Below are positions 8,069 through 57,131 of a stretch of DNA of 64,000 bases, piece by piece (position 1 is the first letter of the stretch; each line of letters starts with the position of its first letter). The notes below the pieces were generated by a model. It saw only the letters and a list, made by a program, of their open reading frames with translations. It searched no databases and was not told the DNA's origin. A program made the position numbers and the translations under genes. Source of the DNA: Parcubacteria group bacterium GW2011_GWC1_36_108 (GTDB lineage Bacteria > Patescibacteriota > Minisyncoccia > Moranbacterales > GWC2-37-73); NCBI GenBank assembly GCA_000991245.1, contig LBRD01000007.1, forward strand, positions 37,539-101,538. Reading direction: 5' to 3'.

Positions 8069-8270
8069 TTTTAAGTTTTAAATTTTAAATTTAAAATCAA
8101 TTTCCAATAAATAAATTTGAAATGTTTAAAAATTAAGACATTGAAAAATTTGGATTTGATTAAAAACTTAAAACTTAAAATTTAAAATTTGATAGTCAAA
8201 AATAAAAAGATAAAATTTTATTATTTAGTGATACTGAGATAAATCAAATTGCTATATAAACTTGACCGGT

Positions 8271-12649: not shown

Positions 12650-12766
12650 ACAAAAGTTACGCGTTTCGAAACATTTCTTTTTTGGCCAATTGCCTGCCTG
12701 CCGGTAGGCAGGTTGGCGACAGCAACTCTTTGAGCTTTTGGATACTCGCCCCGTCAAATTGTATTT

Positions 12767-14071: not shown

Positions 14072-14100
14072 GTATTAGGTTCTAGGTGTTAGGTGTTAGG
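14069..14100. repeat. TAGGTRTTAGG tandem-like repeats (related inverted copy at 17940-18041)
   Basis: read directly. Confidence 0.4.
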
Positions 14101-14365: not shown

Positions 14366-14521
14366 TTTTCCTCCCTTGGCTTCCTTGAGCCATTTGTGAT
14401 ATTTGATTGCTAACGAACCACGATAGTCTATTATACTCTAAAATAATAAAAAAGTCAAGCACGCGCTAAGGCGCGAGTAAAAAGGTTCTAAAGTTTGTAA
14501 AGTTCATAAAGTAAATAAGAT

Positions 14522-15247: not shown

Positions 15248-15403
15248 TTTCCAATAACCAATTTCCAATTTCCAATAAATTCGCCATCCGGCGAAATTGC
15301 AATACAGCGAAGTGGTTTTTATTTTGGTTTGAAAATTTAAAGAATTGAAAATTGTGAATTGAAAATTATAAATTCAATAAAATGCGCAAAACTCTAAGAT
15401 TTT

Positions 15404-16645: not shown

Positions 16646-16688
16646 TGGTTCATAAAGTTTGTAAAGTTCATAAGGTTTGTAAAGTAAA

Positions 16689-17942
16689 ATGAGAAGATTA
16701 TTTTTATCAATAAGATTAGCTTTTGGAAATCTGCGTAATAATAAAGGCAGGACTGTTTTGACATTGGTTGGAATTGTAATTGGGATTATGTCGGTTATTG
16801 TGGTTTCTTCTAGTGGACAAGGACTTAAAAATTATGTGCTTGGACAATTTGATAGTTTTGGAACTGATGTGATTCAAATTGAAACAAAGGTTCCCGCAAC
16901 AGGAAAAACTTCAGCTGCAAATGCAGAAGGTCAAGCAACAGGAATTCAAATAACAACTCTGAAAGTTTCAGATGGAGAAGCGCTGGCTAAAATTCCAAAT
17001 GTGGCAAGTTTTGCAGCAGGAACAATGGGTCAAGAGCTGACAAGTTATAAAAATGAAAATAAAAGAGCGATGCTTTTTGGGGTTGGTGCTAATTATCCCC
17101 AGGTGGACAGTGCTGTGAAGGTTCAGGAAGGAATTTTTTATGATCAGGCTGCTGATGATAGTTTGGGACAAGTTGCGGTTATCGGACCTGATATTAAAGA
17201 AACTCTTTTTGGCACTGAAGATGCCATTGGAAAGTCAATCAAAATTAAAAATATGGATTTCCGTGTGATTGGAGTTTTGGAAGAAAGAGGTGCAGTTACA
17301 TTTTTTAATTATGATGAACTCATTTATATTCCCGTGCAAACATTGCAAAAGAAAATTTTAGGAATTGATTATGTGCGTTTTATTACTGTTAAAGTTAAAG
17401 ATCAAAATCTTATTGAGGTAACCGTGGCTGATATTGATGATACATTAAAAAGAATTCATCGTACTTATAAACCAGAGCAAGAAGATTATTCAATTACAAC
17501 TATTCAGGAGGCGCAAAAAATAATTGAGGATGTTTTTGGCACGATTAATATTTTGTTGTTGGCGCTCACTTCCATCTCTTTGATTGTGGGTGGGGTGGGA
17601 ATTATGAATGTTATGTATGTGGCGGTGTCTGAGAGAACATTTGAAATAGGTTTGCGAAAAGCTGTTGGCGCAAAAGAGAACGACATTCGCAATCAGTTTT
17701 TGTTTGAAGCGGTTTTTCTGACCATTGTTGGCGGTGTGGTGGGTATTATATTGGGGTATTTGATTTCTCTTGGATTTTCTTATGTTATAAGTTTGTTGGG
17801 TTATACGCTTAACTTTTCTCTTACCTTAAATTCTATTTTAATAGCGGTTGGCTTTTCCGCTACTACCGGAATAATTTTTGGTTATTATCCTGCTTACAAA
17901 GCTTCAAAATTAAGTCCGATGGAAGCGCTAAGAAAAGAATAG
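16689..17942 (+). CDS. ABC transporter permease, MacB/FtsX family (second copy)
   Basis: same architecture, 'FEIGLRKAVGA'. Confidence 0.85.
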   Translation: MRRLFLSIRLAFGNLRNNKGRTVLTLVGIVIGIMSVIVVSSSGQGLKNYVLGQFDSFGTDVIQIETKVPATGKTSAANAEGQATGIQITTLKVSDGEALAKIPNVASFAAGTMGQELTSYKNENKRAMLFGVGANYPQVDSAVKVQEGIFYDQAADDSLGQVAVIGPDIKETLFGTEDAIGKSIKIKNMDFRVIGVLEERGAVTFFNYDELIYIPVQTLQKKILGIDYVRFITVKVKDQNLIEVTVADIDDTLKRIHRTYKPEQEDYSITTIQEAQKIIEDVFGTINILLLALTSISLIVGGVGIMNVMYVAVSERTFEIGLRKAVGAKENDIRNQFLFEAVFLTIVGGVVGIILGYLISLGFSYVISLLGYTLNFSLTLNSILIAVGFSATTGIIFGYYPAYKASKLSPMEALRKE

Positions 17943-18041
17943 GTAATTAGGTGCTAGATATTAGGTATTAGGTGTTAGGAAATGCCAGATATGTAGCTTA
18001 AAATTTGTTAAGACCTAATACTTATAACCTAGAACCTAGCC
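17940..18041. repeat. imperfect long palindrome built from TAGGTRTTAGG units (ggtgttagg ... cctaatac)
   Basis: read directly; immediately after permease stop, could act as terminator-like hairpin. Confidence 0.4.
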
Positions 18042-18280
18042 AAATACTACACAATATTTTATGCAACCTTGCAAGTTGTAGGTTTTATGCGGTTGTGGTA
18101 ACATATAGGGACAAATTAACCAGTAAAAAAGAGGTTCACCCTGTTAAATAATTTTAAATTTCTTAAAAAATTTAAAATTAAGATTTGGCAAGGTGGATTG
18201 ATGTATAAAGAATAATAACCTAATCTAGGGTAAGTTGGTTCTAAATAACTTGTAGGGCCAAATCTTATTTAACAGGGTAA

Positions 18281-18715
18281 ATGCATCAAGACAAAAAAAG
18301 AGAAGAGCTTGAACAAAAAAAGGAATTCGAACGACTTCAACAAGAAGAATTGTTTGAACTTGAACAAGAAGAAGATTTGTCTGAAGTAGAAACAGAAGAA
18401 GATCAGCAAAATAAAAATCTAGAACAAACACAAGAAAGCCAACCAATCGAAAATGAAATGGAACGTGCAAAAAAAAGAAGAAGGGAAGTTATCTTTGAAA
18501 TGGCATTGTTCTTTATTCTAGGTGTTCTTTTGGGAGTGACAATTAAAACGGAGGCAGTGAAAAAAATCACAATAGGATTTAATGATTATCAAATAACCAA
18601 ATCATCGCAGAAATATGACATTGCTGAATTGAAGAAAGCTCTTGATGAACAAGCAGCAGAGCAAGCCGCACAAGAACAAATACAAATGGAAAACCAGAAT
18701 CAACCACAACAGTAA
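18281..18715 (+). CDS. hypothetical single-TM protein with acidic coiled-coil N-terminus
   Basis: ORF with one TM (FEMALFFILGVLLGVTI); start codon embedded in TTTAACAGGGTAAAT motif. Confidence 0.5.
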   Translation: MHQDKKREELEQKKEFERLQQEELFELEQEEDLSEVETEEDQQNKNLEQTQESQPIENEMERAKKRRREVIFEMALFFILGVLLGVTIKTEAVKKITIGFNDYQITKSSQKYDIAELKKALDEQAAEQAAQEQIQMENQNQPQQ

Positions 18716-18752
18716 ACATACAACATTTAACATTTAACACTCGAAAAATCCT

Positions 18753-25506: not shown

Positions 25507-25691
25507 ATCAGATCTTATAATTTCGAAGTCCGAATTTCGAATTTCGAATCAAATCTAAATGACATAATGTTTCAAATTGACTTTACAAACTTTATGAACT
25601 TTATTTTCAAATGAAGCGAGTGAAATGAGAAACGTTTTCATTTCCGAGCGAATGCAGAAAATATCTAATATAACTTTAAGAACTTAGTTTT

Positions 25692-30043: not shown

Positions 30044-30165
30044 TGAACAAATGCTCTATGCTCTATGTTTTATGTTTTATGATTTGTGTGATATAATATA
30101 AAAGTAAAAAAACAAAAGTGCATTCGGATTTAATTTGAATTTAATTCGTGTGTGCAAATTCGTAT

Positions 30166-30852
30166 ATGCCAATATTAAAATTTGAAAATGTTTCCAAGAC
30201 ATATCCCGGAAATTTTGTCGCACTGGAAGAAATAAACCTTGTCATTGAAGGCGGAGAGTTTTTGTCGATTGTTGGTCACAGTGGATCTGGGAAATCAACA
30301 TTGCTCAAGCTTATCTATGCTGAAGAACAGGCCACTATTGGTCACGTGTATTTCAATGATCGCTCAATAGATTCAATCAATCGCAAACATTTGCCATATT
30401 ATCGTCGCAACATCGGAACGGTTTTTCAAGATTTTAAATTGCTTCCGCAAAAAACAGCTTTTGAAAATGTGGCTTATGCATTAGAAGTCTCAGATGAAAC
30501 CGAAGAAGAAATTAATGAACTCGTGCCTGAGATATTAGAAATTGTCGGGATGAATGATAAAGCCAACAAATATCCTCGTCAACTTTCTGGCGGAGAGCAG
30601 CAAAAAATTTGTTTGGCTAGGGCTTTGGTGCGTAAGCCCATGGTTATTATTGCTGATGAGCCGACTGGAAATCTTGATCCTGTTGCAACCTGGGAAATTA
30701 TTCAACTTTTGTTGAAAATAAACAGTATGGGCACTACAATAATTCTTGCTACTCATAATAAAGATATTGTGGATAAATTGAATCGTAGAGTTATTGCTCT
30801 TGATAACGGAAGAGTGATCAGGGATCATATGAAGGGAAGGTATGCGATATAG
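30166..30852 (+). CDS. ftsE: cell-division ABC transporter ATP-binding protein FtsE
   Basis: '[15 protein letters not shown]', 'LSGGEQQKICLARAL'; followed by ftsX. Confidence 0.9.
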   Translation: MPILKFENVSKTYPGNFVALEEINLVIEGGEFLSIVGHSGSGKSTLLKLIYAEEQATIGHVYFNDRSIDSINRKHLPYYRRNIGTVFQDFKLLPQKTAFENVAYALEVSDETEEEINELVPEILEIVGMNDKANKYPRQLSGGEQQKICLARALVRKPMVIIADEPTGNLDPVATWEIIQLLLKINSMGTTIILATHNKDIVDKLNRRVIALDNGRVIRDHMKGRYAI

Positions 30853-30959
30853 TTCATAAAGTTAAAAGTTATAAAGTTATAAAGTTAAATACAAAAATAG
30901 AAACTAATTTTTTCTAAAAGCTAAAAAGCTGAGAAGCTAATGCCTAAGAAGCTGTTATT

Positions 30960-36554: not shown

Positions 36555-36634
36555 AGTTAATATAACATTTTAAATTTTAAATTCTAAGTTTTAAATTTTA
36601 AATGACAGGGCGGGAGTCCAGAATGACACGAGGC

Positions 36635-38573: not shown

Positions 38574-41027
38574 ATGCAAAAAAATCCTAATTTTATACAT
38601 TGGTATTATAATGAAGCAGTTTGTGATCTCTTGGAAATCTGGAAGAATTTTTTGTTTTTTGCTTGGCAACATTTTTCAATATCCGAACTTACAAAAACTC
38701 TTTTGTCTCCGTGGAGGCGCGATGTGGTTTTTTCCACTTGGGTGGGAATTCATCCGATCAAGATGCTGACAGCTCTTTTTGAAAATATTGTTTCAAGATT
38801 TTTAGGTGCGATTGTTCGCACTTTTGTTATTTTTGCGGGACTGGCTTTTTTTCTGCTGGTGCTTGTTTTTGGATTGATAATTAATATCGTCTGGCTTGGC
38901 GCTCCGCTTTTGTTGGTAGTCTTTTTCTTCTATGCTTTTAATCTTGGGATAGATTTTTATTATTCTATTGGCTTGGCGCTTGTCTGGATTGTTGGAGCGA
39001 TTTTTTTGTATTATCAAGATTCAAAGCCGCCAATGCTGCTTATGAATTTCCAGCATTTGCTCAGACACTCCGTTTTCGAAAGAATTTGTGGTCGACTTGG
39101 CATTGGACGCAAGCGTTTTCCAAAGGAGATTTTTGGCAATCAAGATCTTTTTAATGAATTTTTAAAAGCCAGGAATCTGACTGAAAAAGAATATTTGCGT
39201 CTTACTTCGATTGAATTGAAAAGACAGCAGGAAATAAATGATATGCCAAAATTTTGGCGTTGGGAATATTTGAATAAAATTCCCGCTATTGGAATGCAAT
39301 GGCGCTATGCGTATACTGTTCATTTGGATAAATATGGTTTGGATTTGTCGACAAATGATTGGAGTGAATATGCAAAGGCTGATCTTGTTGGCAGAGCAGA
39401 TGAATATGAAGTTTTGAAACTTGTGCTGGAAAGGCCTGATCAAAATTGTGCACTCTTGGTTGGAAATGCTGGAATTGGTAAAAAAACATTGATTCACTGT
39501 TTGGCCAAAAAAGTTCGTTTTAATGAAGAGATGGGAATTCTTTCCAACAAAAGAATGATCGTGCTTGATTTGGGGAGAGTGATTTCAGATGCCGTCAGCA
39601 AAGGCGAAGATGTGGAAAATTCATTGCGCAGACTTTTTTATGAGGCAAGTTATGCGGGTAATGTTGTTTTGATTATTGAACATTTTGAATATTTCTTAGG
39701 CAAAGAGGGAAGTTCTTTCCATCCTGACATTTCGGCAGTGCTTGCAGAGTTTTTGCATATTCCTACTTTTCAAATAATTGCAATATCAACACCCAAGGAA
39801 TATCATCATTTGATTGAAAAACAAGAAGAAATTGCAAAATATTTTGAAGTTATTGAAATGCGAGAGCCGTCTGAAGAGGAAACGATTGAGATTTTGCTGA
39901 ATCAACTTGAAAAATATGAACATAGGCGAGTGCTTTTTACTTTCAAGGCATTAGAGAAGATTGTGCGTGACAGTGCAAAGCATAATTGGGAGTTTCCTTT
40001 GCCGGAAAGAGCAATTGATTTGGCAATGGGTGTGCTGATGTTTTGGGAGAAAAAATCTGTCGAGCAATTTGTCACTGAAAAAACCGTGGCAGACTATTTG
40101 TCATTAAAAACTGGTGTTCCACAAGGGGAGATTGAGGGCGGAGAGAGAAAGAAATTGTTGAACCTTGAATCAATGCTGCATAGACAGGTTATTGGACAGC
40201 AAGAGGCAATCTCTCAGGTTTCTCAGGCGATGCGAAGAGCGCGCAGTGGAATTGGAAATTCTCAAAAACCAGTTGGAAGCTTTTTGTTTTTGGGACCAAC
40301 GGGAGTGGGAAAAACGGAAACTGCCAAAGCACTTGCCAAAACTTATTTCGGCGATGAAAATAAGATGATTCGTTTGGATATGAGCGAATTTCAAACTCCG
40401 AATTCTATTGATAGGCTGTTGGGTTCTAGTCAACTCAATCAACCAGGGAGATTGGTCACACAAATTAAAGACAATCCATACTCTTTGCTTTTGCTTGATG
40501 AAATAGAAAAAGCTTATCCGGAAATTCTGAATATATTTTTGCAAATCTTGGATGAAGGATATGTTAATGATGCTTTCGGCGAGAAGATAAATTTTCGCAA
40601 CACGATGATTATTGCAACTTCAAATGCAGGAGCTTCGCTTATCAAGGAGATGGTGGAGCAGGAGCGTCCGGCAGAAGAAATCAAGCAAGCTGTTATTGAT
40701 TGGACGATTAAAAATAACATTTTCCGCACTGAATTTCTGAATCGTTTTGAAGGAGTGATTTTCTTCCGACCGCTTAATGAAATTGAATTAAAAAGCGTTG
40801 TGCGTTTGCAATTGCAAAAATTTGTTCGCAGATTGGCAAAAGAAAAAAATATCGAGCTGGTTTATCAAGAAAATATTATTGAGAAGATTATTCAAAAAGG
40901 ATACAATCCAATTTTTGGAGCAAGATCGCTTAATCGATATATCGAAGATGAAATTGAAAGCATCGTGGCTAAAAAAATAATCTCTGGTGAAACATTGAGC
41001 GGGGAGAAAATCACGCTGTCACTTTGA
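38574..41027 (+). CDS. membrane-anchored Clp/Hsp100-family AAA+ ATPase (degenerate D1, intact D2)
   Basis: N-terminal multi-TM segment; degenerate Walker A 'GNAGIGKKT'; D2 'GPTGVGKTE', 'LLLLDEIEKA', 'ATSNAG', ClpB small D2 domain; alternative start 38508. Confidence 0.75.
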   Translation: MQKNPNFIHWYYNEAVCDLLEIWKNFLFFAWQHFSISELTKTLLSPWRRDVVFSTWVGIHPIKMLTALFENIVSRFLGAIVRTFVIFAGLAFFLLVLVFGLIINIVWLGAPLLLVVFFFYAFNLGIDFYYSIGLALVWIVGAIFLYYQDSKPPMLLMNFQHLLRHSVFERICGRLGIGRKRFPKEIFGNQDLFNEFLKARNLTEKEYLRLTSIELKRQQEINDMPKFWRWEYLNKIPAIGMQWRYAYTVHLDKYGLDLSTNDWSEYAKADLVGRADEYEVLKLVLERPDQNCALLVGNAGIGKKTLIHCLAKKVRFNEEMGILSNKRMIVLDLGRVISDAVSKGEDVENSLRRLFYEASYAGNVVLIIEHFEYFLGKEGSSFHPDISAVLAEFLHIPTFQIIAISTPKEYHHLIEKQEEIAKYFEVIEMREPSEEETIEILLNQLEKYEHRRVLFTFKALEKIVRDSAKHNWEFPLPERAIDLAMGVLMFWEKKSVEQFVTEKTVADYLSLKTGVPQGEIEGGERKKLLNLESMLHRQVIGQQEAISQVSQAMRRARSGIGNSQKPVGSFLFLGPTGVGKTETAKALAKTYFGDENKMIRLDMSEFQTPNSIDRLLGSSQLNQPGRLVTQIKDNPYSLLLLDEIEKAYPEILNIFLQILDEGYVNDAFGEKINFRNTMIIATSNAGASLIKEMVEQERPAEEIKQAVIDWTIKNNIFRTEFLNRFEGVIFFRPLNEIELKSVVRLQLQKFVRRLAKEKNIELVYQENIIEKIIQKGYNPIFGARSLNRYIEDEIESIVAKKIISGETLSGEKITLSL

Positions 41028-41040
41028 AATCATATAACAT

Positions 41041-41078
41041 ATAACATATAGCATATAACAAAAATGCTTAAAACTGGC
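41041..41078. repeat. CATATAACATATAGCATATAACA(AAAATG) locus-specific repeat (5 copies between 41.0 and 47.4 kb)
   Basis: copies at 41041, 43848(rc, degenerate), 46149, 46551(rc), 47357. Confidence 0.55.
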
Positions 41079-41112
41079 GTAAGAGTTTTTTATATTGTAT
41101 GATATATGGTAT

Positions 41113-42288
41113 ATGAAAATATTAGTCATCGCGCCTACACCGTTTTTTGCGGATCGTGGGACACATATTCGAATATTGGAAGAATCGCTGGCTTTGGAAA
41201 AGCGTGGGCATCAAATTACGATAGCAACGTATCATATTGGAAGGGATATTCATTCGGATGTCGAAACCAACATCGACGTTCGTCGCATCAGGAGGCTTCT
41301 TTTTTGGTATAAAAAGCTGGAAGCTGGACCTGATTGGCAAAAGATTTTTCTTGATATTATGCTTATTCGAAAAGCCTTTTATTTGGCGCGCACTCAAAAG
41401 CCGGATGTTATTCACGGGCATTTGCACGAAGGAGTTTTGATTGGTTGGATTGTGAAAAAAGCTCTTTTTTGGAGAAAAATGAAATTGGTCGCAGATTTTC
41501 ACGGAAGTCTTACCAAAGAAATGGCATCGCATAGCTATCTGAAAGGAGGAATTCTTAAAAAGATATTTTTTGAAATTGAAAAATGGATTGATAATTTGGG
41601 AGACAGTGCGCTGACTAGTAGTGAAGAAAACACCAAGGACATTGCAAAGCTTCGCGAGGATCATAACGTGACAACTGTTTTGGATGGAGTTAACCTTGCT
41701 TGCTATGAAAATAATTTGAGCAAAATTGAACTTAAAAAAGAATTTGAATTATCCTTGGACAAAACAATAGTGACATACGCTGGTGCTCTTATCTTTAATA
41801 AAGGCATTGAATATTTGATGGACGCAATTCCGAAAGTGCTTGAGAAAAATAAAAATGTGTATTTTGTTATTGCGGGATTTCCAATCGAGGATGTGACAAA
41901 ATTTGTGAAAGTAAATAGATTATCAGAAAATGTGCGCATAATAAGCCCGCTCAACTATTTTGATTTGCCAAAGGTGTTAATGGCTAGTGATATTGGCGTA
42001 GATCCAAAAGACTCAATGACGCTTCAGGCTAGTGGAAAAATTTTGCAATATATGGCAGCAGGATTGCCAGTCGTTTGTTTTGATCGTCCAAACAATCGAG
42101 CATATTTGGGAGAGGGTGGGGAATACTCAAGAGAAATTTCTGCCGTATGCTTGGCTGACAGTATTCTCTCTCTTGCAAATGAACCGCAAAAAATGGAATA
42201 TAAAGGACAATTGAACAAGCAGCAGATAAAAAAATTCAGTTGGGATATCTCAGCACAAAAAATTGAAGAAATTTATAATAATATTTAA
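41113..42288 (+). CDS. GT4-family glycosyltransferase
   Basis: 'MKILVIAPTPFFADRGTHIRIL' N-terminus, GT-B C-terminal domain. Confidence 0.85.
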   Translation: MKILVIAPTPFFADRGTHIRILEESLALEKRGHQITIATYHIGRDIHSDVETNIDVRRIRRLLFWYKKLEAGPDWQKIFLDIMLIRKAFYLARTQKPDVIHGHLHEGVLIGWIVKKALFWRKMKLVADFHGSLTKEMASHSYLKGGILKKIFFEIEKWIDNLGDSALTSSEENTKDIAKLREDHNVTTVLDGVNLACYENNLSKIELKKEFELSLDKTIVTYAGALIFNKGIEYLMDAIPKVLEKNKNVYFVIAGFPIEDVTKFVKVNRLSENVRIISPLNYFDLPKVLMASDIGVDPKDSMTLQASGKILQYMAAGLPVVCFDRPNNRAYLGEGGEYSREISAVCLADSILSLANEPQKMEYKGQLNKQQIKKFSWDISAQKIEEIYNNI

Positions 42289-42297
42289 AAATAAAAA

Positions 42298-43785
42298 ATG
42301 AGTAATAAAGACCAATACAAAATTAACCGTTTAGATAATAATGGAATTGATCAACTTGCGCACCTAAATCCTTCAAAAAAACAAAAAATATCAAAATTAA
42401 AAACATTTAATCGTAAAAAAATCATAATAATCAGTATTATTGTTTTTGTATGTGTTGGTGGATATTATGCCTTCTCTTATGCTGCTGCAAATAAGCGTAT
42501 TATTGCGATATCTTCTTTTTCTGCATTGAGTAATGTATCCAAGTTTCTTCCGATAGGGCAGGATGAAAAAAAGGAAATCGAGGTTTTAAATGCTATTGTG
42601 ACAGAATTTACCAAAAATGATGATCAGGAAAAAAGTTTCTTGATTATGCTGCAAAATGAAGCAGAACTTCGTCCGGGCGGTGGATTTTTGGGCCAATATG
42701 CGATTGTGAAAACGAAAAATGGTGAAATTATTTCGACATTTGTTGAAGACGCAAATCTTTTGGATCAACGCATTTCGGCAAAAATTCCAGCCCCGTTTCC
42801 TTTCAAGAGAATGATGCAAATTAAAAATTGGAAATTTCGCGACTCAAACTTTTCGCCGGATTTTCCAACTAATGTTGAAAAGGCAAAATATTTTTTCAGA
42901 TTAGCAGGAAGAAGTTCAGCTGGTTTTGATGGTGTGGTGGCTGTTAATTCGGAAGTTTTTGATAATGTTATTGGACTCACTGGTCCAATAACCGTCCCAG
43001 GATATTCCGGAGAATATACTCAGGAAAATGCTTCACGCAAATTGGAAGAACAAGTTGAAAAAGCCTACATTATGAATCCTGAAATTGATACCCAGAATCG
43101 TAAGGCGATTATAAAAAAAATGGCGCCAATAATTTTGGATAAGTTGCTCACGGTTGGAAATATCACAAAGGTTGCAGATCTTTTTCATAATGAATTGAAA
43201 AATAGAAATGTGATGATTAATTTTTCTGATCCAAATTTGCAAAAGATGGTCGAAAGTGTTCATTGGGATGGTGCTATGCCAAAAGACTGGGGAGGGGATT
43301 ATCTAATGGCAGTTGATGCAAATATGGGCGCACTCAAATCAGATTTTTATGTTAAGCGTGAAATGATTTATGATATTGATTTGACTCAGCCAAAGCCCCT
43401 GGTAACGTTGAATATAAAATATAAACACACCGCTCCATATGGCGATTGGCGCACGAGCGATTATCATTCCTATTTAAGGGTATATGCACCGCAAGGTTCA
43501 AATTTTTTGGAGAGCAATATGGTAAGTCATTTGAGCACTGCTGATGAATTTGGTAAAACATATTTTGGTTTTATGTGTCACGTGCTTATTGGGCAAGAAA
43601 CAAATGCGACAATAAAATATGAATTGCCAGAATCTTTCAGTAATATTGCTGATTATAAATTGCTCATTCAAAAACAATCAGGCGCTGGAGATGTTCCTAT
43701 TTCAGTTAATGTGAAAACAAAAGACGAACAATATTCTCAACAGCAAACACTTACCAATGACATTAGATTTGAATATGAAAAATAG
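42298..43785 (+). CDS. DUF4012-like membrane-anchored protein (polysaccharide-locus associated)
   Basis: N-terminal TM; 'MLQNEAELRPGGGFLGQYA' motif. Confidence 0.55.
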   Translation: MSNKDQYKINRLDNNGIDQLAHLNPSKKQKISKLKTFNRKKIIIISIIVFVCVGGYYAFSYAAANKRIIAISSFSALSNVSKFLPIGQDEKKEIEVLNAIVTEFTKNDDQEKSFLIMLQNEAELRPGGGFLGQYAIVKTKNGEIISTFVEDANLLDQRISAKIPAPFPFKRMMQIKNWKFRDSNFSPDFPTNVEKAKYFFRLAGRSSAGFDGVVAVNSEVFDNVIGLTGPITVPGYSGEYTQENASRKLEEQVEKAYIMNPEIDTQNRKAIIKKMAPIILDKLLTVGNITKVADLFHNELKNRNVMINFSDPNLQKMVESVHWDGAMPKDWGGDYLMAVDANMGALKSDFYVKREMIYDIDLTQPKPLVTLNIKYKHTAPYGDWRTSDYHSYLRVYAPQGSNFLESNMVSHLSTADEFGKTYFGFMCHVLIGQETNATIKYELPESFSNIADYKLLIQKQSGAGDVPISVNVKTKDEQYSQQQTLTNDIRFEYEK

Positions 43786-43885
43786 TTTATAAGGTTTGTA
43801 AAGTTAAATACGAAATACTTGCTACAAAGAAGCTTATACGGCATTTATGTTGTATGTTATATGCTATGTGGTACAATGAATTCAT

Positions 43886-45064
43886 ATGAAATTGCTACTA
43901 ATTAAGGCTGGAAAAATCTTTAAAACAATTCAAAGGGAAGGTATTTTTAGGGGCGGAAAACGGGTTATTCTAGCTATTTTTGCTATGTTTCGTTTCGTAG
44001 GAAGTGGCGATGTTTTGTTTATTGCCGGAGGCGTTGGAGACAGTGCTCGCTATCGTGATCATCACGTGGCTGAAGAATTAGAGATTCAAGGTTTAAAATG
44101 TTCAATTACTGTTCAAGATAATCCATTTTTGCCAAATTATGCTGACAAATTCAAGGTGTTTGTTTTTCATCGAGTTTTATTTTCTCCAAGCGTAAAAAAG
44201 CTGATTGAAAAAATAAAAGAGCAGAAAAAAGAGATCATTTTTGAGACAGACGATTTGGTTTATGATCCAAAATTTTTAGAGTATATGGATGGGTTCAAAA
44301 CAATGAATTATCTTGAAAAAAAATTATACGAAAATGGAGTTGGAGGAGAAATTTTGGCTGATCCATATGTTAAGGTTTGCAGCACAACCACAACTTATCT
44401 TGCTGACAAATTGCGCCAGCAGAATAAAAAAGTTTTTATTGTTCCAAACAAGCTTTCAAGAAGGGATGTGGAAGTCGCAGATATAGTAACAAACAACAAA
44501 CAACAAACAACTGACAACAAAATCAATCTGGGATATTTCTCAGGAACACTTTCGCATAATAAAGATTTTGCTACCATCACTGAGGCTCTTGTGCAGATAA
44601 TGGAGAAAAATGAAAATGTTGAATTATTCTTGGTTGGACCACTTGATATTGAAAATGAACTGAACAAATTTGCTAGCAGAATAAAACAGTTGCCATATGT
44701 GACGCGCGAAAAACATTTTGGCAACTTGGCAAGTGTTGATATTAATTTGGTACCACTGGAAATTGGCAATCCATTTTGCGAATCAAAATCAGAACTGAAA
44801 TTTTTTGAAGCAGGAATTGTGGGCGTGCCAACAGTGGCAGCTGCCACAGCGCCTTTTGTTGAGGCCATCGCTGATGGCGTTGATGGTTTTGTTGCTAATG
44901 GCACCGAGCAATGGATTGAAAAAATAGAAAATCTTATTCTGGATGAAAATTTGCGAATTGAAATCGGAGAAAAAGCCCGCGAAAAAGCACTGAGTCGATA
45001 TACAACGACTAATGCCACAAATAAGAATTACTATGATTATTTGAAGAGCAAGATAAAAAGATAA
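43886..45064 (+). CDS. glycosyltransferase (GT4-like GT-B)
   Basis: 'LVPLEIGNPFCESKSELKFFEAGIVGVPTVAA'. Confidence 0.8.
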   Translation: MKLLLIKAGKIFKTIQREGIFRGGKRVILAIFAMFRFVGSGDVLFIAGGVGDSARYRDHHVAEELEIQGLKCSITVQDNPFLPNYADKFKVFVFHRVLFSPSVKKLIEKIKEQKKEIIFETDDLVYDPKFLEYMDGFKTMNYLEKKLYENGVGGEILADPYVKVCSTTTTYLADKLRQQNKKVFIVPNKLSRRDVEVADIVTNNKQQTTDNKINLGYFSGTLSHNKDFATITEALVQIMEKNENVELFLVGPLDIENELNKFASRIKQLPYVTREKHFGNLASVDINLVPLEIGNPFCESKSELKFFEAGIVGVPTVAAATAPFVEAIADGVDGFVANGTEQWIEKIENLILDENLRIEIGEKAREKALSRYTTTNATNKNYYDYLKSKIKR

Positions 45065-45182
45065 GACAATGCCAAATTAAAAATTAAAAATTTCAAATGA
45101 ATGACCAATGATAAAATGTTTAAAATTGGAAATTTGAGAATTTGAAATTGATTTGTAATTTGATATTTGTAATTTGAAATTT

Positions 45183-46139
45183 ATGCAAATTCTCGTTACT
45201 GGTGGTGCTGGCTTTATTGGAAGTAATGTTACAAAAAAATTATTGGAGCGCGGAGACTCTGTTGTTTGCGTGGATGAGTTTAATGATTATTATTCTCCAA
45301 AAATAAAGGAACTTAATGTTGCTCAATTTGCTGATAATCCAAATTTTACATTGTATCGTGGAAGCATTACGGATTATGAATTTTTGAAAACTGTTTTTGA
45401 AAAAGAAAACATTCAAAGAGTTGTGCACGCAGCAGCTCGAGCGGGTGTGCGACCGAGCATTGAAAATCCTTTCATATATGAAGACACGAACGTGAAAGGC
45501 ACGCTTAATCTTTTGCATTTAGCTAAGGAATTTAAGATTGAAAATTTTGTATTGTTTAGTTCATCTTCGGTGTATGGAAATTCCTCAAAAGTGCCATTTT
45601 CCGAAAATGAGGTGGTAGATTGTCCCATTTCACCCTATGCGGCCACCAAGAAGGCCACAGAGCTTCTAGGATACACATACCACCATTTATACCACCTCAA
45701 TGTAAATGTTGTACGTCCCTTCACAGTCTACGGGCCCGGTGGACGGCCTGATATGTTTCCATTTTTAGCCACCAAATTGATTGATGAAGGCTTGGAAGTG
45801 AAGCGTTTTGGAGACGGCTCAACTCGCAGAGATTACACTTTTATTGATGATTTGGTTGATGGGGTGGTGGCTGCACTCGACACGATTTTGGGATATGAAA
45901 TTTTCAACCTTGGAAATTCAAACACTGTCGAGCTTAATTATTTTATCTCCACGGTGGAAAAAATTCTTGGCAAAAACGCCAACATCAAAGAATATCCAAT
46001 GCAACCAGGGGATGTCCTGATCACAAACGCCGACCTCACCAAATCTCGAAAACTTCTCGGCTACAATCCGAAGGTAAAGATTGAAGAGGGAATGAGTATT
46101 TTTATAAAGTGGTATCAAGAAAACAAAAATCTTTACTAA
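45183..46139 (+). CDS. NAD-dependent nucleotide-sugar epimerase/dehydratase (extended SDR)
   Basis: 'ILVTGGAGFIGSN', 'YAATKKATE' YxxxK. Confidence 0.85.
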   Translation: MQILVTGGAGFIGSNVTKKLLERGDSVVCVDEFNDYYSPKIKELNVAQFADNPNFTLYRGSITDYEFLKTVFEKENIQRVVHAAARAGVRPSIENPFIYEDTNVKGTLNLLHLAKEFKIENFVLFSSSSVYGNSSKVPFSENEVVDCPISPYAATKKATELLGYTYHHLYHLNVNVVRPFTVYGPGGRPDMFPFLATKLIDEGLEVKRFGDGSTRRDYTFIDDLVDGVVAALDTILGYEIFNLGNSNTVELNYFISTVEKILGKNANIKEYPMQPGDVLITNADLTKSRKLLGYNPKVKIEEGMSIFIKWYQENKNLY

Positions 46140-46176
46140 GATTTTTGTAACATGTAACATATAACATGTAACAAAA

Positions 46177-46539
46177 ATGCAAAACAAAAAATTTCACGAT
46201 GAATTAAAGAGAAAAATGGATGATTACGCTTTTGGTGTTTATGCTATAACTAAAAAATTTCCTAAGGACGAGATTTATGGCATAACATCACAACTGCGTA
46301 GATCTGCATTATCTGTTATACTGAACTATATAGAAGGATTTGCTAGAACTGGAGATAAGCAATTGAAAAATTTCCTAAATATTTCTTATGGCTCTCTTAA
46401 GGAGTCAAAATATTTACTTTATTTCTCAAAAAGAGAAGGATATATTGAAAATTTGGAATATGAAAAATTAATTAATTTATCTGAAGAAATTGGGGCAATG
46501 CTATGGACAACAATAAATGGTCTCAAGGAAAAATGTTGA
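46177..46539 (+). CDS. four-helix-bundle protein (23S rRNA intervening-sequence protein family)
   Basis: 'DELKRKMDDYAFGVYAITKKFPKDEIYGITSQLRRSALSV...EGFAR' family pattern; start codon embedded in repeat motif. Confidence 0.65.
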   Translation: MQNKKFHDELKRKMDDYAFGVYAITKKFPKDEIYGITSQLRRSALSVILNYIEGFARTGDKQLKNFLNISYGSLKESKYLLYFSKREGYIENLEYEKLINLSEEIGAMLWTTINGLKEKC

Positions 46540-46576
46540 GCCAGAAAGTTGTTATATGTTATATGCTATATGTTAT

Positions 46577-47353
46577 ATGTTGAAACATGAAAACTATAAG
46601 GAACTCATCTGGGCGCTTGCAAAAACTGATTTTAAACTTCGTTATCACGGAAGTGTTTTGGGATATTTGTGGGCGCTGCTCAAGCCGCTGCTGACTTTCG
46701 CGGTGATGAATTTTGTTTTTTCTTCAATGTTTAACCCTCGGGGAACAGGGATGAGTACATATTCATTGCAGTTGTTGGTTGCGCTTATGATGTTTTATTT
46801 TTTCTCTGAAGGAACGACAGCAGGAATGAGTTCACTTTTATCAAAAGCTCAACTTGTAACCAAAATTTATGTCCCACGCTGGACGATTATTATTGCTTCT
46901 ACAATCAACGCAACTCTAATATTCCTGATGAATCTTGTCGTGATTGTTTTTTTCTTTGCGCTTAAAGGTTTCATGCCGAGCATTCCAGCAATCCTTTTGT
47001 TTTTAATGTTTTCAATTTTCATATATATCATCGTTCTTTCTTTTTCACTCATTACTGCACCGCTCTATGTCAAATTTCGCGACCTGGCGATGATCTGGGA
47101 AGTTCTTTTAATGATAATTTTGTACGCGTCGCCGATTATTTATCCTTTAGTAACTTTGCCGGCAGCATATCATAAATTTATTCTGCTTAATCCTCTGGCT
47201 TTTATTATTCACTTTACCAAGGAATCGCTCATCAACAATCATTTTGCTAGCCCTTCACAATATGTAGTGTTTGTCGCCATAGTTTTTGGCGCCTTCGCCC
47301 TAAGCATCTTTTCATATCGTAAATTTATTCCAAAAGTTGCCGAAGAAATCTAG
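46577..47353 (+). CDS. ABC-2 type polysaccharide/teichoic-acid export permease (Wzm/TagG-like)
   Basis: 'ELIWALAKTDFKLRYHGSVLGYLWALLKPL' N-terminal signature, 6 TMs. Confidence 0.8.
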   Translation: MLKHENYKELIWALAKTDFKLRYHGSVLGYLWALLKPLLTFAVMNFVFSSMFNPRGTGMSTYSLQLLVALMMFYFFSEGTTAGMSSLLSKAQLVTKIYVPRWTIIIASTINATLIFLMNLVVIVFFFALKGFMPSIPAILLFLMFSIFIYIIVLSFSLITAPLYVKFRDLAMIWEVLLMIILYASPIIYPLVTLPAAYHKFILLNPLAFIIHFTKESLINNHFASPSQYVVFVAIVFGAFALSIFSYRKFIPKVAEEI

Positions 47354-47393
47354 AAACCATATAACATATAGCATAAAACATATAACACTTGTA

Positions 47394-47431
47394 AAAACAA
47401 AACCTTGTCGCGCTGACAAGGTTTTTGTTTT
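47394..47431. terminator. bidirectional intrinsic terminator (aaccttgtc-loop-gacaaggtt with A/T flanks)
   Basis: read directly after wzm stop. Confidence 0.75.
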
Positions 47432-47436
47432 GTGAT

Positions 47437-47448
47437 ATAATATCAATG
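47437..47448 (+). promoter_or_regulatory. extended -10 promoter element TGTGATATAAT (identical element at 30086-30096 upstream of ftsE)
   Basis: TGn-TATAAT match. Confidence 0.4.
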
Positions 47449-47529
47449 TTGGTAGTTTATAAATATTAATCACCCAGAGTTAAATAATATTTTGATTACA
47501 AAATAATTTAACAGGGTAAATAAAAAAAT

Positions 47530-47805
47530 ATGTTTTCATTAAGTCCAGATATTGAAATAGGAGCCATGCTTTTTTTGATAGGCATCGCTTTTATTTGCTC
47601 ACTCGTGTACGCTTTTTTTGCCAAAGAAAAAATTAAAGCATTAGTGGTTTTTTCAGTGCTTAGTAATATGATTTTATGGTTGTTTATTTTGATAGGATCA
47701 AGACTTTTTTATTTTTATGATATCCTATGGTTCAGAGTTTTTTCTGTTTTCTTTTGGCCGGTTATTAACATCTATTTAATCATTAAAGTGTTTTCAAAAA
47801 AATGA
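47530..47805 (+). CDS. small hypothetical membrane protein (91 aa), translationally coupled (ATGA) to lipase gene
   Basis: 3 TMs; preceded by TTTAACAGGGTAAAT motif. Confidence 0.5.
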   Translation: MFSLSPDIEIGAMLFLIGIAFICSLVYAFFAKEKIKALVVFSVLSNMILWLFILIGSRLFYFYDILWFRVFSVFFWPVINIYLIIKVFSKK

Positions 47806-53127: not shown

Positions 53128-53415
53128 ATGGTTACAGAAATATACATAAATAGGATCAAGGAAATTTTACAAAAACATCTCACTAATAATGAGAAAGTTT
53201 TTATTTTTGGCTCAAGTGTGGACGGTGAAAAGTTTGGTGATGTGGATTTGGCAGTAGTTTCTGAGCAATCAGTGGATGAAAGAATAATGCGCCAAATTAG
53301 AGAGGATTTGGAGGAATCAACACTGCCGTATAAATTTGATTTGGTGGATATTAATCAAACTAATGATCCATTTCGCACCCGCGTGCTGAATGGTCCAAAA
53401 TTATGGATTATCTAG
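53128..53415 (+). CDS. minimal nucleotidyltransferase (MNT) antitoxin of a HepT/MNT pair
   Basis: 'FGSSVDGEKFGDVDLAV' GSx9DxD motif. Confidence 0.75.
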   Translation: MVTEIYINRIKEILQKHLTNNEKVFIFGSSVDGEKFGDVDLAVVSEQSVDERIMRQIREDLEESTLPYKFDLVDINQTNDPFRTRVLNGPKLWII

Positions 53416-53798
53416 AAGAAAAACATACACAACTTGAGCAAGCATTAAAAAAATGGAAGCAAGTGCTGGATATGCCTTTTTCGGATATAAATAGAGACGC
53501 ATCAATTCAGAGATATGAATTTTCTTTTGAATTGCTTTGGAAAGTAGTTAAAAAATATCTCAAAGAGATTGAAGGTTTTGAATGTAATTCACCTAAATCA
53601 TGTTTTCGAGAAATTCGTATGACATTGGATTTAAATGAATCTGACATTGAAATATGCATAAGTATGACGGAGGATAGAAATTTGTCAGTGCACACATATT
53701 CAGAGGAGATGGCGAACAATTTATATGCAAAACTGCCAGAATATGCCAGAGTTTCAAAATTAATTGCAAAAAAAATAAAAGAAAAAGCAAAAATATAA
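53403..53798 (+). CDS. HepT-like (DUF86/HEPN) toxin
   Basis: 'RNLSVHTY' Rx4HxY HEPN motif; 13-nt overlap with MNT gene. Confidence 0.75.
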   Translation: MDYLEEKHTQLEQALKKWKQVLDMPFSDINRDASIQRYEFSFELLWKVVKKYLKEIEGFECNSPKSCFREIRMTLDLNESDIEICISMTEDRNLSVHTYSEEMANNLYAKLPEYARVSKLIAKKIKEKAKI

Positions 53799-54520: not shown

Positions 54521-55081
54521 ATGCACATATTTGTTGATGAATCTGGAATACATAAAGAAACTGGAAAATCTTCAGTTGCGTTGGTTTATGTTTTAACAGA
54601 AGATGTAAAATTTCTTAATGAAGCCATAATTAGGGCTGAAAAATCATTAAGAATAAAAAATTTTCATTGGACTGATTGTTCGTGGAAAATAAGGATTGAA
54701 TTTTTCAAGCTTATATTGAAGGAAAATTTTTCTGTAAGAGTTTCAATTATACGAAATCCTTTCAGTAAAAACGATTTTGAAGAGTCAATCAAGCTGCTGT
54801 TGTTGGAAAAGAAATTTAAAAAAGTTGTAATAGATGGCAAGAAGCCAAAATGGTATGCATTAAAAATGAAAAAGCTGTTGCGAGATTCTGGAATTTCTGT
54901 AAAAAAAATAAATATGGCCAATGACGAAGCGCATCCATGTTTGAGGTTGGCTGATGCTTATGCTGGTTTGTCTAGGGCATACTGGGAAGGGAGGGAAAAT
55001 AAGAATGTGGATAGTTTGTATGAAATAGCTCGGAAGAAAATAAAAACCACCCAACTGGTGGATGGTCAGACAGTCCAGTAG
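54521..55081 (+). CDS. DUF3800-family protein
   Basis: 'MHIFVDESGIHKE' N-terminal DESG motif characteristic of DUF3800. Confidence 0.55.
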   Translation: MHIFVDESGIHKETGKSSVALVYVLTEDVKFLNEAIIRAEKSLRIKNFHWTDCSWKIRIEFFKLILKENFSVRVSIIRNPFSKNDFEESIKLLLLEKKFKKVVIDGKKPKWYALKMKKLLRDSGISVKKINMANDEAHPCLRLADAYAGLSRAYWEGRENKNVDSLYEIARKKIKTTQLVDGQTVQ

Positions 55082-55218
55082 CTATTGCTAGCTTTCTCGC
55101 ACGGAGATTTGTCCTGGGTATCTAGTTATATTCAAAGCATAGCATAAAGACTAAAATACGTCAATAGCGCTATGCATCATTATATACGGATTATATTAGA
55201 AAAATATTTCAAAAAACA

Positions 55219-55243: not shown

Positions 55244-55832
55244 GCCTATCCCTTTCGAGAAACCCGCCATACGGTCGGTGTTCGGCTAACATTTGACTTT
55301 ATTATAGACAATTTTTACAATGCTGTCAATGGTTAATACTCCTTCCGCTATTATTAATTTCAAAAATGAAATGTTACGGATAGAGTGGCTATTTTAAGCC
55401 ATTTTTTATTATATAATTGTGTTGCAAATTTACCCATATAATGATAAACTTTATTAGTGAAAAAAAGTGAAGAAGATGTACTTTTTTGTTTATTTGAATG
55501 ATGCAAGGGCAATTTTCCACATTTCTTTTTCCCGCAAAAAGAAACCTGGAGGAAAGAAAAGCTCACACCTGATGAAGATACTGTGGCAAAAACTTCGCTC
55601 TTCGCTAGAATTTACACTTCGCTCGTAGTCTGCTGACTCTCGCTACGTTTCAAAATTCCTTAACGCTCATCACTCGTTTTTTGCCTACGTACTTCATATG
55701 GTGCAAAGGGAATGCGGAATGCGAATACTGAAGAATACAGAGAGGGGTAGAGAGAATGGAAGAATTAGTTTAAAATTAAATAATTGAAAAATTAAGATTT
55801 GAATCGAAATTCAAAATTCAAAATTCGAAATT

Positions 55833-57131
55833 ATGAACAACGACATCGCGATCAGCGTTAAGAATGTGTCAAAGACCTTCAAGATACCACATGAAAAAAT
55901 CTCCTCTCTTCGTGGGGCGGCGGTTTCGATTTTTTCGAAAAAGAGGGGTTATGAAGAATTTAAGGCGTTGGATGATGTTAGTTTTGAGGTGAAGAAGGGG
56001 GAGTTTTTTGGGATTATTGGGAGAAATGGGAGTGGAAAAAGCACACTTTTGAAAATTCTGGCGGGAATATATCAGACTGACAAGGGAAGTGTGGAAATCG
56101 ACGGGCGGATTTCGCCGTTTTTGGAATTGGGGATTGGGTTTAATCCAGAACTTAGTGGTCGGGATAATGTGTATCTTAATGCAACTGTATTGGGACTGAC
56201 GAAAAAAGAAATCGATAAAAAATTTGATTCAATTGTGAAATTTTCTGAATTGGAAAGATTTATTGATCAAAAACTCAAAAATTATTCCTCCGGCATGCAA
56301 GTGCGACTAGCCTTTTCCGTTTCAATCCATGCCAACCGCGAGATTCTGCTCATGGATGAAGTGCTGGCGGTTGGAGATTCGAATTTCCAGAGTAAATGTT
56401 TGGAAGAATTTAATAAATATCGGGACGCGGGAAGAACTGTTATTATTGTTACTCATGATATTTCAGTAGTTCAGAGATATTGTGATCGAGCGATGCTTCT
56501 TAGAAATGGCAAAATAATGAAAATGGGAAAAGCAGAAGATGTGGCAAACGCATATGTTTATGATAATATGTCAGATGAAGAAAAAAGGTTTACTGATGAA
56601 GAAAGGCAAAAAATAATTGATGCCGAAAAAAATCTTGAAAATTTAAAAGGGAAAGAATTGGAGGATGAAAAAAGAAGAATTAAAGAGGAAAAAATAAAAC
56701 AAGCAGAAGAAAGAAAAAATAAAGTTGTGGAGATTATGAAGGTTGAACTTCTGGACAAAGACGGAATAGATAAGAATGTTTTTGAGACAGGGGAATCGCT
56801 CGATATTAAAATTAATTTTGAGGTGTACAAAGAAATTGAAAATTTAAATTTTGGGATAGGTCTGCATGCAATTTCAGGCGGACAAGTTTTTGGATATAAT
56901 ACTCAAATGGATGAGATAATTGTTGACAAAAATAAAAAAAGTATAACACTGCATTTTGATAAACTGCCAATTTTAAAGGGTGAATACACCATGAATATTG
57001 CATGCTGGAATGATATTGTTCAAGATCCATATGATCTCAAAATGGGTTATAGAATAGTGAGAATGTTTTCTAAAGGTTTAAAGAATAATTACGGTGGTTT
57101 TTGTGATATTGAGCATGCTTGGAAGAATTAA
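55833..57131 (+). CDS. ABC transporter ATP-binding protein Wzt/TagH-like with C-terminal extension (coiled coil + beta-rich domain)
   Basis: 'GRNGSGKSTLLKILAG', 'YSSGMQVRLAFSV' signature. Confidence 0.85.
   Translation: MNNDIAISVKNVSKTFKIPHEKISSLRGAAVSIFSKKRGYEEFKALDDVSFEVKKGEFFGIIGRNGSGKSTLLKILAGIYQTDKGSVEIDGRISPFLELGIGFNPELSGRDNVYLNATVLGLTKKEIDKKFDSIVKFSELERFIDQKLKNYSSGMQVRLAFSVSIHANREILLMDEVLAVGDSNFQSKCLEEFNKYRDAGRTVIIVTHDISVVQRYCDRAMLLRNGKIMKMGKAEDVANAYVYDNMSDEEKRFTDEERQKIIDAEKNLENLKGKELEDEKRRIKEEKIKQAEERKNKVVEIMKVELLDKDGIDKNVFETGESLDIKINFEVYKEIENLNFGIGLHAISGGQVFGYNTQMDEIIVDKNKKSITLHFDKLPILKGEYTMNIACWNDIVQDPYDLKMGYRIVRMFSKGLKNNYGGFCDIEHAWKN

Follow-up and report, generated by a model that had tools for sequence, protein, structure and literature searches.

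Tandem-heptamer repeats in a Moranbacteria polysaccharide gene string as probable arms of an intervening-sequence-type four-helix-bundle gene cassette

Why should one short repeat recur at the gene junctions of a single polysaccharide gene string and nowhere else around it? The question arises from a 64,000-nucleotide stretch of a Candidatus Moranbacteria genome (Patescibacteria, candidate phyla radiation (CPR); contig LBRD01000007.1, positions 37,539 to 101,538), hereafter the window. Here, tandem copies of the heptamer CATATAR lie among genes for, in order, a ClpC-like ATPase, a GT4 glycosyltransferase, a DUF4012 protein, a second glycosyltransferase, an NAD-dependent epimerase, a 120-aa PF05635 protein and an ABC-2 permease (wzm). 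The first-pass annotation of the window took the repeat for a common operator or RNA element coordinating the cluster. We consider it probable instead that the CATATAR repeats form the end arms of a gene cassette of the intervening-sequence type, which encodes a four-helix-bundle (4HB) protein, and that they are not a regulator dedicated to the polysaccharide genes. What we observed is an architecture that is specific to the 4HB family, broad in its phylogenetic distribution, polymorphic for presence and absence, and accompanied by gene-less arms dispersed to other sites. About 74 kb of the window's own genome was examined.

Heptamer arrays at the gene junctions

Delimited with Tandem Repeats Finder, the motif is a tandem heptamer array, (CATATAR) x 4.0–4.6. 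A search with the 23-mer CATATAACATATAGCATATAACA, allowing up to 3 mismatches, gave 7 overlapping matches in the window compared with 0 in 100 dinucleotide-preserving shuffles; these fall at 41031–41060 (+), 46151–46173 (+), 46550–46579 (-) and 47358–47387 (+), and a degenerate copy at 43846–43870 (-) was recovered by a 16-mer search. The five copies first described are thus real and lie within ~10 nt of their original coordinates. A sixth, degenerate copy was found at 41086–41116 (-) and is the partner of the 41031 copy, with which it pairs in the fold. As originally reported, the copies occur in both orientations and every one sits at a gene junction of the cluster, over a span of 41031–47387, with no further copy of the CATATAR unit detected by scanning the window and the 10 kb beyond its right end. 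The features are as follows.

41031 to 41067, plus strand: copy 1, 4.3 units, directly after the ClpC-like stop codon (41027), with a AAAAATGC tail; it opens a 12-codon mini-ORF at 41064
41086 to 41116, minus strand: degenerate reverse copy of TATGATA type, with a period-7 array at 41098–41116, a 77% match to the 43848 copy and a small inner hairpin
43841 to 43870, minus strand: degenerate reverse copy whose tail is GCATTTAT (ATAAATGC when reverse-complemented); the second glycosyltransferase gene starts 16 nt downstream (43886)
46146 to 46176, plus strand: upstream arm of the putative cassette, (TGTAACA)x4 with CATGTAA/CATATAA units; the 4HB start codon follows after 3 nt
46177 to 46539, plus strand: gene for the 4HB protein, 120 aa, matching PF05635 (23S_rRNA_IVP) with E 4e-28 and 98 bits vs a cut-off of 33.8
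46549 to 46581, minus strand: downstream arm of the putative cassette, 89% complementary to the upstream arm and 97% to the 47358 copy, starting 10 nt after the 4HB stop codon
47358 to 47387, plus strand: solo forward copy, 5 nt after the wzm stop codon (47353) and followed by the operon terminator
47399 to 47435, plus strand: intrinsic terminator with a 12-bp stem and T tract, ending the ClpC-to-wzm gene string

Homology between copies stops at the array, save for a short (A)AAATGC tail (3/5 copies) and a RAAAY lead-in. The order of units (CATATAA-CATATAG-CATATAA) is the same at five sites and in distant genomes. All five arrays were identical in five independent assemblies (L125–L129; 99.4–100% identity, at most 74 substitutions per 12.3 kb) and so are not assembly artefacts. 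The 43841–43870 copy is 81% complementary to 46145–46180. Copy 1 and the 41086–41116 copy together form a hairpin that holds no gene, immediately before the GT4 start (ATG 41109), and the AAAAATGC tail of copy 1 looks like the start of a deleted 4HB open reading frame (ORF). The mini-ORF that this copy was said to open does exist, but it starts at 41064 and has 12 codons, rather than starting at 41074 with 13.

These properties bear on replication slippage, which has been proposed for the general bacterial excess of heptameric simple sequence repeats (SSRs; the hypothesis is cited in PMC4692102) and by which heptamer microsatellites would arise independently as by-products in A/T-rich spacers. 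Period-7 arrays are hugely over-represented in the window (13–17, vs 0–1 for every other period from 4 to 12), related genomes are alike in this, and Coxiella strains vary in copy number (PMC4990558). However, slippage would not be expected to produce the same A/G/A unit order at five sites and in distant genomes, to hold the unit number near 4, or to leave arrays invariant in five assemblies at 99.4–100% identity, and it gives no account of the reverse-complement arrays that flank one gene family in 128/157 loci (see below). We therefore consider it highly improbable. A phase-variable SSR (contingency locus) was considered separately and rejected, as L125–L129 showed no unit-number polymorphism.

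Downstream of wzm, the terminator and then a strong TG-TATAAT promoter (47413–47441) close the ClpC-to-wzm gene string, and together (47399–47441) they are the sole strong promoter/terminator pair in 40900–47700. The arrays themselves were not read as promoters, since a consensus scan of 40900–47700 gave 18 promoter-like sites vs 27 in shuffles, none of them in arrays. A known RNA family was also rejected: Rfam 15 had no gathering-score match to the motif and none at E<=1 in 40900–47600. Extended -10-like boxes (TGnTATAAT/TACAAT) were seen 4–9 nt from start codons with no obvious Shine-Dalgarno sequence (window 41090–41111, 43866–43888 and 47430–47441; 13095–13110 of the related locus L001), which suggests leaderless or very short-leader mRNAs in the lineage.

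A PF05635 gene and its inverted arms

The cassette is lodged between the epimerase gene and wzm in a co-directional gene string. Its 4HB protein contains RxxxSxxxNxxE, the family motif (PMC3936711), and its closest solved structure is the XCC0516 pentamer (2gsc, E 1e-11). In both the minimum free energy and the centroid folds of 46130–46600, arms 46148–46174 and 46549–46575 close a predicted stem of ~27 bp (z = -4.6). An RNA-element role, which the first-pass annotation had allowed for, is thus physically plausible, whereas the coordination of the cluster that it attached to this role is not borne out. The observation that copies supply start codons holds. The 4HB start codon was correctly placed at 46177, 3 nt beyond the end of its array, and the reverse copy does overlap the wzm start, as had been noted. 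The last ATG of the reverse array (46577) is probably the start codon, because it gives MLKHENYKEL, compared with MKQHENYKEL in the orthologue, and because independent gene calls agree; wzm likewise starts at the last ATG of the reverse arm in the related genome STA_10.

For the family of the window protein (subfamily A), we collected 80 loci with homologues at 53–92% identity from many Patescibacteria lineages, of which 78 were testable. A significant upstream tandem array with a downstream reverse complement was found at 55 of the 78. These arrays abut the ORF (arm-to-ATG mostly -3 to +15 nt, stop-to-arm 0–20 nt), and the forward strand of the arms is A-rich and G-poor. The unit varies by locus (CATGAAA, CATGTAA, CATATTAA, CATTTAAA, AACAGAT, CTTGAAA and others), around a shared TAACAT-like core. 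Subfamily B (L004-type), which is ~35% identical, has inverted arms of the heptamer AATTTYR in 73/79 loci, and a subfamily B gene stands at the same epimerase-wzm junction in another Moranbacterium (L004). Considering both subfamilies in Patescibacteria, 128 of 157 homologous genes have the inverted-arm architecture. Loci were chosen by protein homology, ORF calls in the fetched loci were crude, and the inverted-repeat tests were ungapped and used mononucleotide shuffles. As a control, 391 other genes from these loci were put through the identical test, and 29 were flagged; ~19 of the flagged genes were 4HB genes or of 4HB size, leaving ~10 of ~370 ordinary genes (<3%).

The arms have a period of 7 (or 8) with a median of ~4 units per side, and the nearest protein neighbour has the same arm period in 54/58 cases (permutation, 0/1000). 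Arm type goes with subfamily: TAACAT-N1-2 for A, AATTTYR for B, TCATCAG for C and the 9-mer AGTTCATCA for D. Stop codons in all three frames were found in 30/54 forward arms and ATG in all three frames in 24/54 reverse arms. On cyanobacterial plasmids, 9 of 12 PF05635 genes have inverted heptamer arms, and several lie within cas operons.

Inverted repeats of this length could also be recombination sites. A DNA inversion switch acting on the 4HB or wzm segment would make the polysaccharide phase-variable, and polysaccharide loci are classic phase-variable targets. The arrangement of repeats allows for this, with long inverted copies flanking both wzm (46550/47358, 97% complementary) and the 4HB gene. 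Nevertheless, 23 contigs from many samples, and L125–L129, all show one and the same arrangement, the window has no invertase or recombinase gene, and the 4HB gene is co-oriented with both neighbours in 57/67 loci (median gaps 47 and 42 nt), so we give such a switch almost no weight.

The closest known system is the rRNA intervening sequence (IVS) with an S23p ORF, found in Coxiella burnetii, Leptospira, Brucella, Xanthomonas and CPR rRNA insertions. It shares with the window element the PF05635 ORF family, inverted repeats that form a long ORF-enclosing stem (89% complementary in the window), tandem heptamers directly before the ORF start (four in the window, 3 nt before ATG 46177), and a sporadic distribution with ORF-less versions. 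The stem of the Coxiella 23S IVS contains 2–3 tandem GACAGAT heptamers just ahead of the S23p ATG, and the first heptamer is where RNase III cleaves (PMC4990558); AACAGAT-type arms occur at a CPR homologue (L059). Genes of PF05635 have been reported in CPR rRNA insertions and cas operons (PMC11270868, PMC3936711). There are also differences. An IVS sits in an rRNA helix, whereas the window element is in an mRNA operon, between the epimerase gene and wzm, and Rfam detects no rRNA in the window. Unlike in an IVS, the reverse arm appears to supply the start codon of the next gene, and solo or hairpin copies are present at neighbouring junctions and, in the sister genome, at unrelated loci. By analogy with Coxiella, excision by RNase III, a feature of the IVS, may also occur in the window element. 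An IVS with an S23p ORF was already known; to this the window adds a probable IVS-type 4HB cassette that lies in an mRNA operon and is surrounded by gene-less copies of its arms. In the literature searched, we found no statement linking heptamer arrays to PF05635 outside the Coxiella IVS, nor any of free-standing PF05635 genes bracketed by inverted arrays or of arrays derived from them.

Some individual loci had unusual layouts. At the same epimerase-wzm junction, L006 (17660–18175) and L007 (17570–18090) have nested arms, the inner TCATCAG/TAATCAG pair hugging the 4HB gene and the outer AGTTTTA/AAACTTT pair enclosing all. In a Peribacteraceae metagenome-assembled genome (MAG; L073, 1300–3900), and also in L067, an island of small accessory genes has near-identical heptamer hairpins (CATGAAACTTGAAACATAAAGCTTGAAGCA and its reverse) at each of its junctions. 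This island holds a nucleotidyltransferase/HEPN toxin-antitoxin pair and two 4HB genes, and its layout resembles a cassette array. Among the cyanobacterial genes, L242 (Pseudanabaena plasmid, cas6-4HB-cas4), L243 and L244 are heptamer-flanked 4HB genes in CRISPR-cas operons; the arrays of L242 are direct and not inverted, with (AAAAGCT)n upstream and (AAAAGCC)n downstream.

Arrays in related genomes and elsewhere in the window

The ClpC-GT4-DUF4012-GT-epimerase-wzm cluster is conserved in Moranbacteria. The nearest reference is the MAG UBA12142 (L001), in which ClpC is 97% identical at the amino acid level and the DNA is ~93% identical. Its epimerase (95% aa) and wzm (98% aa) genes are adjacent, and its orthologous cluster has no 4HB gene and no CATATAR array at any junction; in their place, the junctions contain a 9-mer array, an unrelated insertion of 450 nt, and an AGTCRAA array accompanied by a different terminator. 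Comparison with homologous loci had been put forward as a check on the operator, and in the nearest genome it thus yielded a cluster lacking both cassette and motif. The cassette is found at the epimerase-wzm junction of STA_10 (L012/L045), where its protein is 92% identical (aa) and its arms are of CATATAG, and apart from these arms the motif was not found in the cluster of L002–L011. Between ClpC and GT4, where the window has its CATATAR hairpin, L001 has an insertion of ~640 nt (12458–13100) with a reverse-strand 150-aa ORF without a Pfam match and a repeated CAGTTGCGTGTG.

A genome-wide motif search was another check named in advance, with dispersal away from this gene class taken to count against the operator. 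Dispersal of that kind was found, in UBA12142, a sister genome and not the window's own: the exact 23-mer lies at six other sites on contigs totalling ~890 kb, adjoining MetRS, IF3, DnaX, GtrA and hypothetical genes; none of the six has orthology to the window. Other Parcubacteria and metagenomes yielded exact copies of the 23-mer as well. Many dispersed sites are gene-less hairpins with conserved arms and unrelated loops (z -3.8 to -7.9), and others are solo arms followed by a terminator. Hairpins of the inverted-doublet kind were seen in the sister genome and in other Parcubacteria (L037, L038, L039/41, L040, L043, L133, L141, L150). Using tblastn, we found no 4HB gene beside the 23-mer sites in L033–L044 or L130–L153, and none within ~4 kb of the six UBA12142 sites. 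AAATGC, the first bases of the 4HB ORF, is kept after 6 of the ~14 copies inspected, which suggests descent from ORF-containing cassettes. Integron attC and miniature inverted-repeat transposable element readings of these hairpins were rejected, because conservation is confined to the arms, with loops that are unrelated, and there is no integrase. In L033/L147, L130, L132, L144, L146 and L152, whose contigs are of different or uncertain origin (one MAG is labelled Ignavibacteria), the exact 23-mer is embedded in CATATAA-type microsatellites of great length (100–200 nt or more), which probably have no connection with the ~4-unit arms.

A cluster-specific operator or RNA element coordinating the GT4, DUF4012, epimerase and wzm genes would be consistent with the confinement of all copies to the junctions of this gene string within the 64 kb (and a further 10 kb), with the supply of start codons by two of the copies, and with the recurrence of 4HB cassettes of four subfamilies in the cluster (6 of ~10 Moranbacteria loci). 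On the other hand, the motif is missing from the closest genome's orthologous junctions and, save for the STA_10 cassette arms, from L002–L011, and elsewhere in UBA12142 it adjoins housekeeping genes. The main wzt/glycosyltransferase/aminotransferase cluster (~17.7 kb, from 55833 onwards and including the 10 kb beyond the window) has no CATATAR array, solo arms are unstructured on their own, and the arrays have no Rfam match, are not scored as sigma-70 promoters and do not resemble ops/JUMPstart. In that RfaH-dependent antitermination system, a short conserved non-coding element is likewise found in polysaccharide clusters, but the window motif is multi-copy, lies in both orientations, is not conserved with the cluster and occurs at housekeeping genes in the sister genome, and the ops core GGCGGTAG has 0 matches in the window. 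The motif follows the 4HB family and not the gene class, and we regard a dedicated operator as very unlikely.

The association with the cluster can be described otherwise. Across Moranbacteria, four 4HB subfamilies (32–38% mutual identity), each with its own arm type, occur in this cluster (6 of ~10 loci), and copies are ~30–90 times denser around the cassette than in the sister genome overall. The polysaccharide cluster is either a hot spot for such cassettes or else benefits from them.

Part of the operator idea would be rescued if the arrays were binding sites of the 4HB protein itself. A pentameric ring could hold one heptamer of single- or double-stranded nucleic acid per subunit, similar to TRAP or HutP, and locally tune transcription, processing or translation. 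This overlaps with the cassette reading, and several observations point to it. Arm unit and period co-vary with protein subfamily, and the number of units is tight (~4 to 4.6) in a family described as pentameric (XCC0516; Lin 2006, cited in PMC4990558). Extra copies of the cognate arm are found within 3 kb of the gene in about half of the homologous loci, including the window's [arm]-4HB-[arm']-gene-[arm] layout. The window has 5–6 copies around its only A-type gene and none elsewhere. Arms of two families, one forward and one reverse, may also meet at a junction, as do the 9-mer array at 43784–43805 and the 43846 CATATAR copy, and this suggests that arms can act singly. However, the co-variation is equally expected if ORF and arms were inherited or moved as one unit, four units match a pentamer only loosely, no 4HB gene was found near the six UBA12142 sites, and the window has B-type arms with no B-type gene in its 64 kb. 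Recognition of heptamers by PF05635 proteins is hypothetical. A local role mediated by the 4HB protein may exist, but we consider arrays kept as its binding sites a doubtful explanation.

The other heptamer arrays of the window provide a broader context. Overall, 17/20 arrays are intergenic (non-coding DNA is 14% of the sequence) and most begin 0–16 nt from a stop codon. Their units are AATTTCS, TTTTAAR, TAGGTRT and CATATAR. Other CAT-type arrays lie at 18714–18740 (CATTTAA) and 30051–30089 (-, CATAGAG/CATAAAA). Arrays of AATTTYR/TTTTAAR were found at 8067–8190 (8067/8159), 15246–15276, 25519–25549, 36567–36603, 45074–45182 and 55807–55832 (-), where they occupy junctions of housekeeping operons: TrmD/FtsW (a hairpin pair), ABC/MacB, PFOR subunits, GT/epimerase, and directly ahead of wzt. 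The AATTTYR-type arrays match the arms of subfamily B 4HB genes. Judging from their units, most of the other heptamer arrays of the window appear to be gene-less arms of other 4HB subfamilies.

Further arrays were noted in passing. The stop codons of the HlyD-like gene and of the second MacB-like gene mark the beginning of TAGGTRT arrays (14069–14100 and 17940–18043, respectively), the latter array forming a gene-less hairpin with its partner CCTAATACTTATAACCTAGAACCTAGCC. A 4HB subfamily to go with these arrays was looked for and not found; the cyanobacterial plasmid 4HB gene L245 has GGGTGTA arms (compare TAGGTRT). Junction arrays of period 8–9 (AAAGTTYRT) occur at 14481–14512, 16648–16685, 25580–25604, 30847–30887 and 43784–43805 of the window and at 16706–16745 of L001, and the same unit type makes up the inverted arms of the fourth 4HB subfamily in L003 (12876–12920 / 13275–13320). 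Two arrays are inside ORFs, (AATTACA)x4.4 at 11497–11527 in a Mur-ligase gene and (AACAAAC)x4.9 at 44488–44521 in the second glycosyltransferase gene, and may be tolerated insertions or gene-call problems. Finally, wzm (46577–47353) and its usual partner wzt (55833–57131, with a Wzt_C domain) are ~8.5 kb apart. Among the accessory genes between them are those for a 988-aa lipase/LCAT-like protein, a PaaX_M/Cas2-like protein, a nucleotidyltransferase/HEPN-like pair (53128–53798) and a DUF3800 protein, and a DUF3800-II RNA lies at 55064–55129 on the minus strand (Rfam, 68 bits).

Possible mechanism and meaning of the cassette

If the CATATAR arrays are cassette arms, the remaining copies in the window would be gene-less derivatives: a decayed hairpin at ClpC/GT4, in which AAAATGC is left from the lost ORF, and two single arms, one in reverse orientation ahead of the second glycosyltransferase gene and one in forward orientation behind wzm. 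The arms would be the ends of a mobile or recombining unit, near-perfect inverted copies at first and then subject to neutral decay. Transcribed together, they would form an A/U-rich duplex of ~27–30 bp, a natural substrate for RNase III as in rRNA intervening sequences, and cleavage would, by analogy with the Coxiella IVS, cut the cassette out of the host operon transcript. As the sequence reads, the forward arm would close three frames (TAA every 7 nt) and the reverse arm would offer ATG in three frames. Insertion into an operon would therefore be nearly harmless and non-polar, with the downstream gene given a start codon. Movement may occur by homologous exchange in which identical arms recombine and gene-less hairpins serve as landing pads.

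Several observations weigh against this account. All 23 contigs with an identical protein show the same context, so mobility was not seen directly, and the empty site of UBA12142 has an unrelated 9-mer array and not a clean excision scar. Isolated arm mismatches (100 loci) comprise 43 G.U-compatible, 45 A.C and 77 transversions, with no asymmetry favouring the RNA strand; this pattern looks like neutral decay of DNA inverted repeats (element ends) and not like a selected RNA helix. The window 4HB protein has no recognisable nuclease or recombinase motif and so cannot obviously move the element itself. The arms of subfamily B (AATTTCG) lack ATG and stop codons, and the idea of a stop/start adapter is therefore not universal. 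The cassette model does not explain the local clustering of 5–6 copies in 6.3 kb, and the dispersal of the motif comes from the ~93% identical relative, the window's own genome being represented by ~74 kb.

Other known systems resemble the cassette in part. Similar to REPIN-RAYT systems, ~30-nt extragenic repeats often form inverted doublets that fold into hairpins at gene ends, inverted copies of the dispersed repeat stand on either side of a single gene for a small protein, and the type of repeat matches the protein clade. In contrast to those systems, the window protein is a 120-aa 4HB protein with a match to PF05635 only and no HUH/Y1 (IS200-like) transposase features, and its repeats are tandem heptamer arrays and not imperfect palindromes. 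Cyanobacterial STRR, Beggiatoaceae TAACTGA, Xanthomonas GGGAATC and Nostoc GGGGAYT arrays have 2–6 (mostly four) intergenic heptamers, often a few nt upstream of starts, and are sometimes inverted pairs and variable between close relatives (PMC4679880, PMC4692102). The window arrays likewise have 2–6 intergenic heptamers near gene starts or stops. While those arrays were reported without an associated gene, the ones described here are tied to PF05635, and the heptamer arrays flanking 9/12 cyanobacterial plasmid PF05635 genes are G-rich and of the kind known from Nostoc. Avd of diversity-generating retroelements has a related 4HB pentamer fold (bAvd-like match of 30.5 bits, below the cut-off of 40), but no reverse transcriptase or template/variable repeat pair was found near the locus, the sole reverse transcriptase-like hit in the window being an RNase H (12218–12649).

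Considering these likenesses together, we tentatively propose a partnership of PF05635 proteins with tandem-heptamer arrays that crosses phyla (Patescibacteria, cyanobacteria, the Coxiella IVS). In this partnership, each subfamily would travel with, and possibly recognise, its own ~4-unit array as inverted arms, and gene-less arms would spread to other junctions.

To our knowledge, no function has been established since 1993 for the S23p or "23S rRNA intervening-sequence" proteins, and we know of no explanation for the intergenic heptamer repeats that have been noted since 1990. Our results tie the two together, in 128/157 Patescibacteria and 9/12 cyanobacterial plasmid loci and with subfamily-specific units, and place the IVS design within ordinary mRNA operons, including cas operons. 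An apparent cluster-specific regulator thereby becomes an instance of a general element, which averts a wrong regulatory annotation, and annotators gain a simple rule for reading much of the non-coding DNA of these streamlined genomes. If the proposed partnership is true, it would give a source for the unexplained excess of intergenic heptamers (STRR, TAACTGA, GGGAATC) and, for the first time, a way into the function of the S23p/IVS family, which would then be a system similar to REPIN/RAYT or to TRAP.

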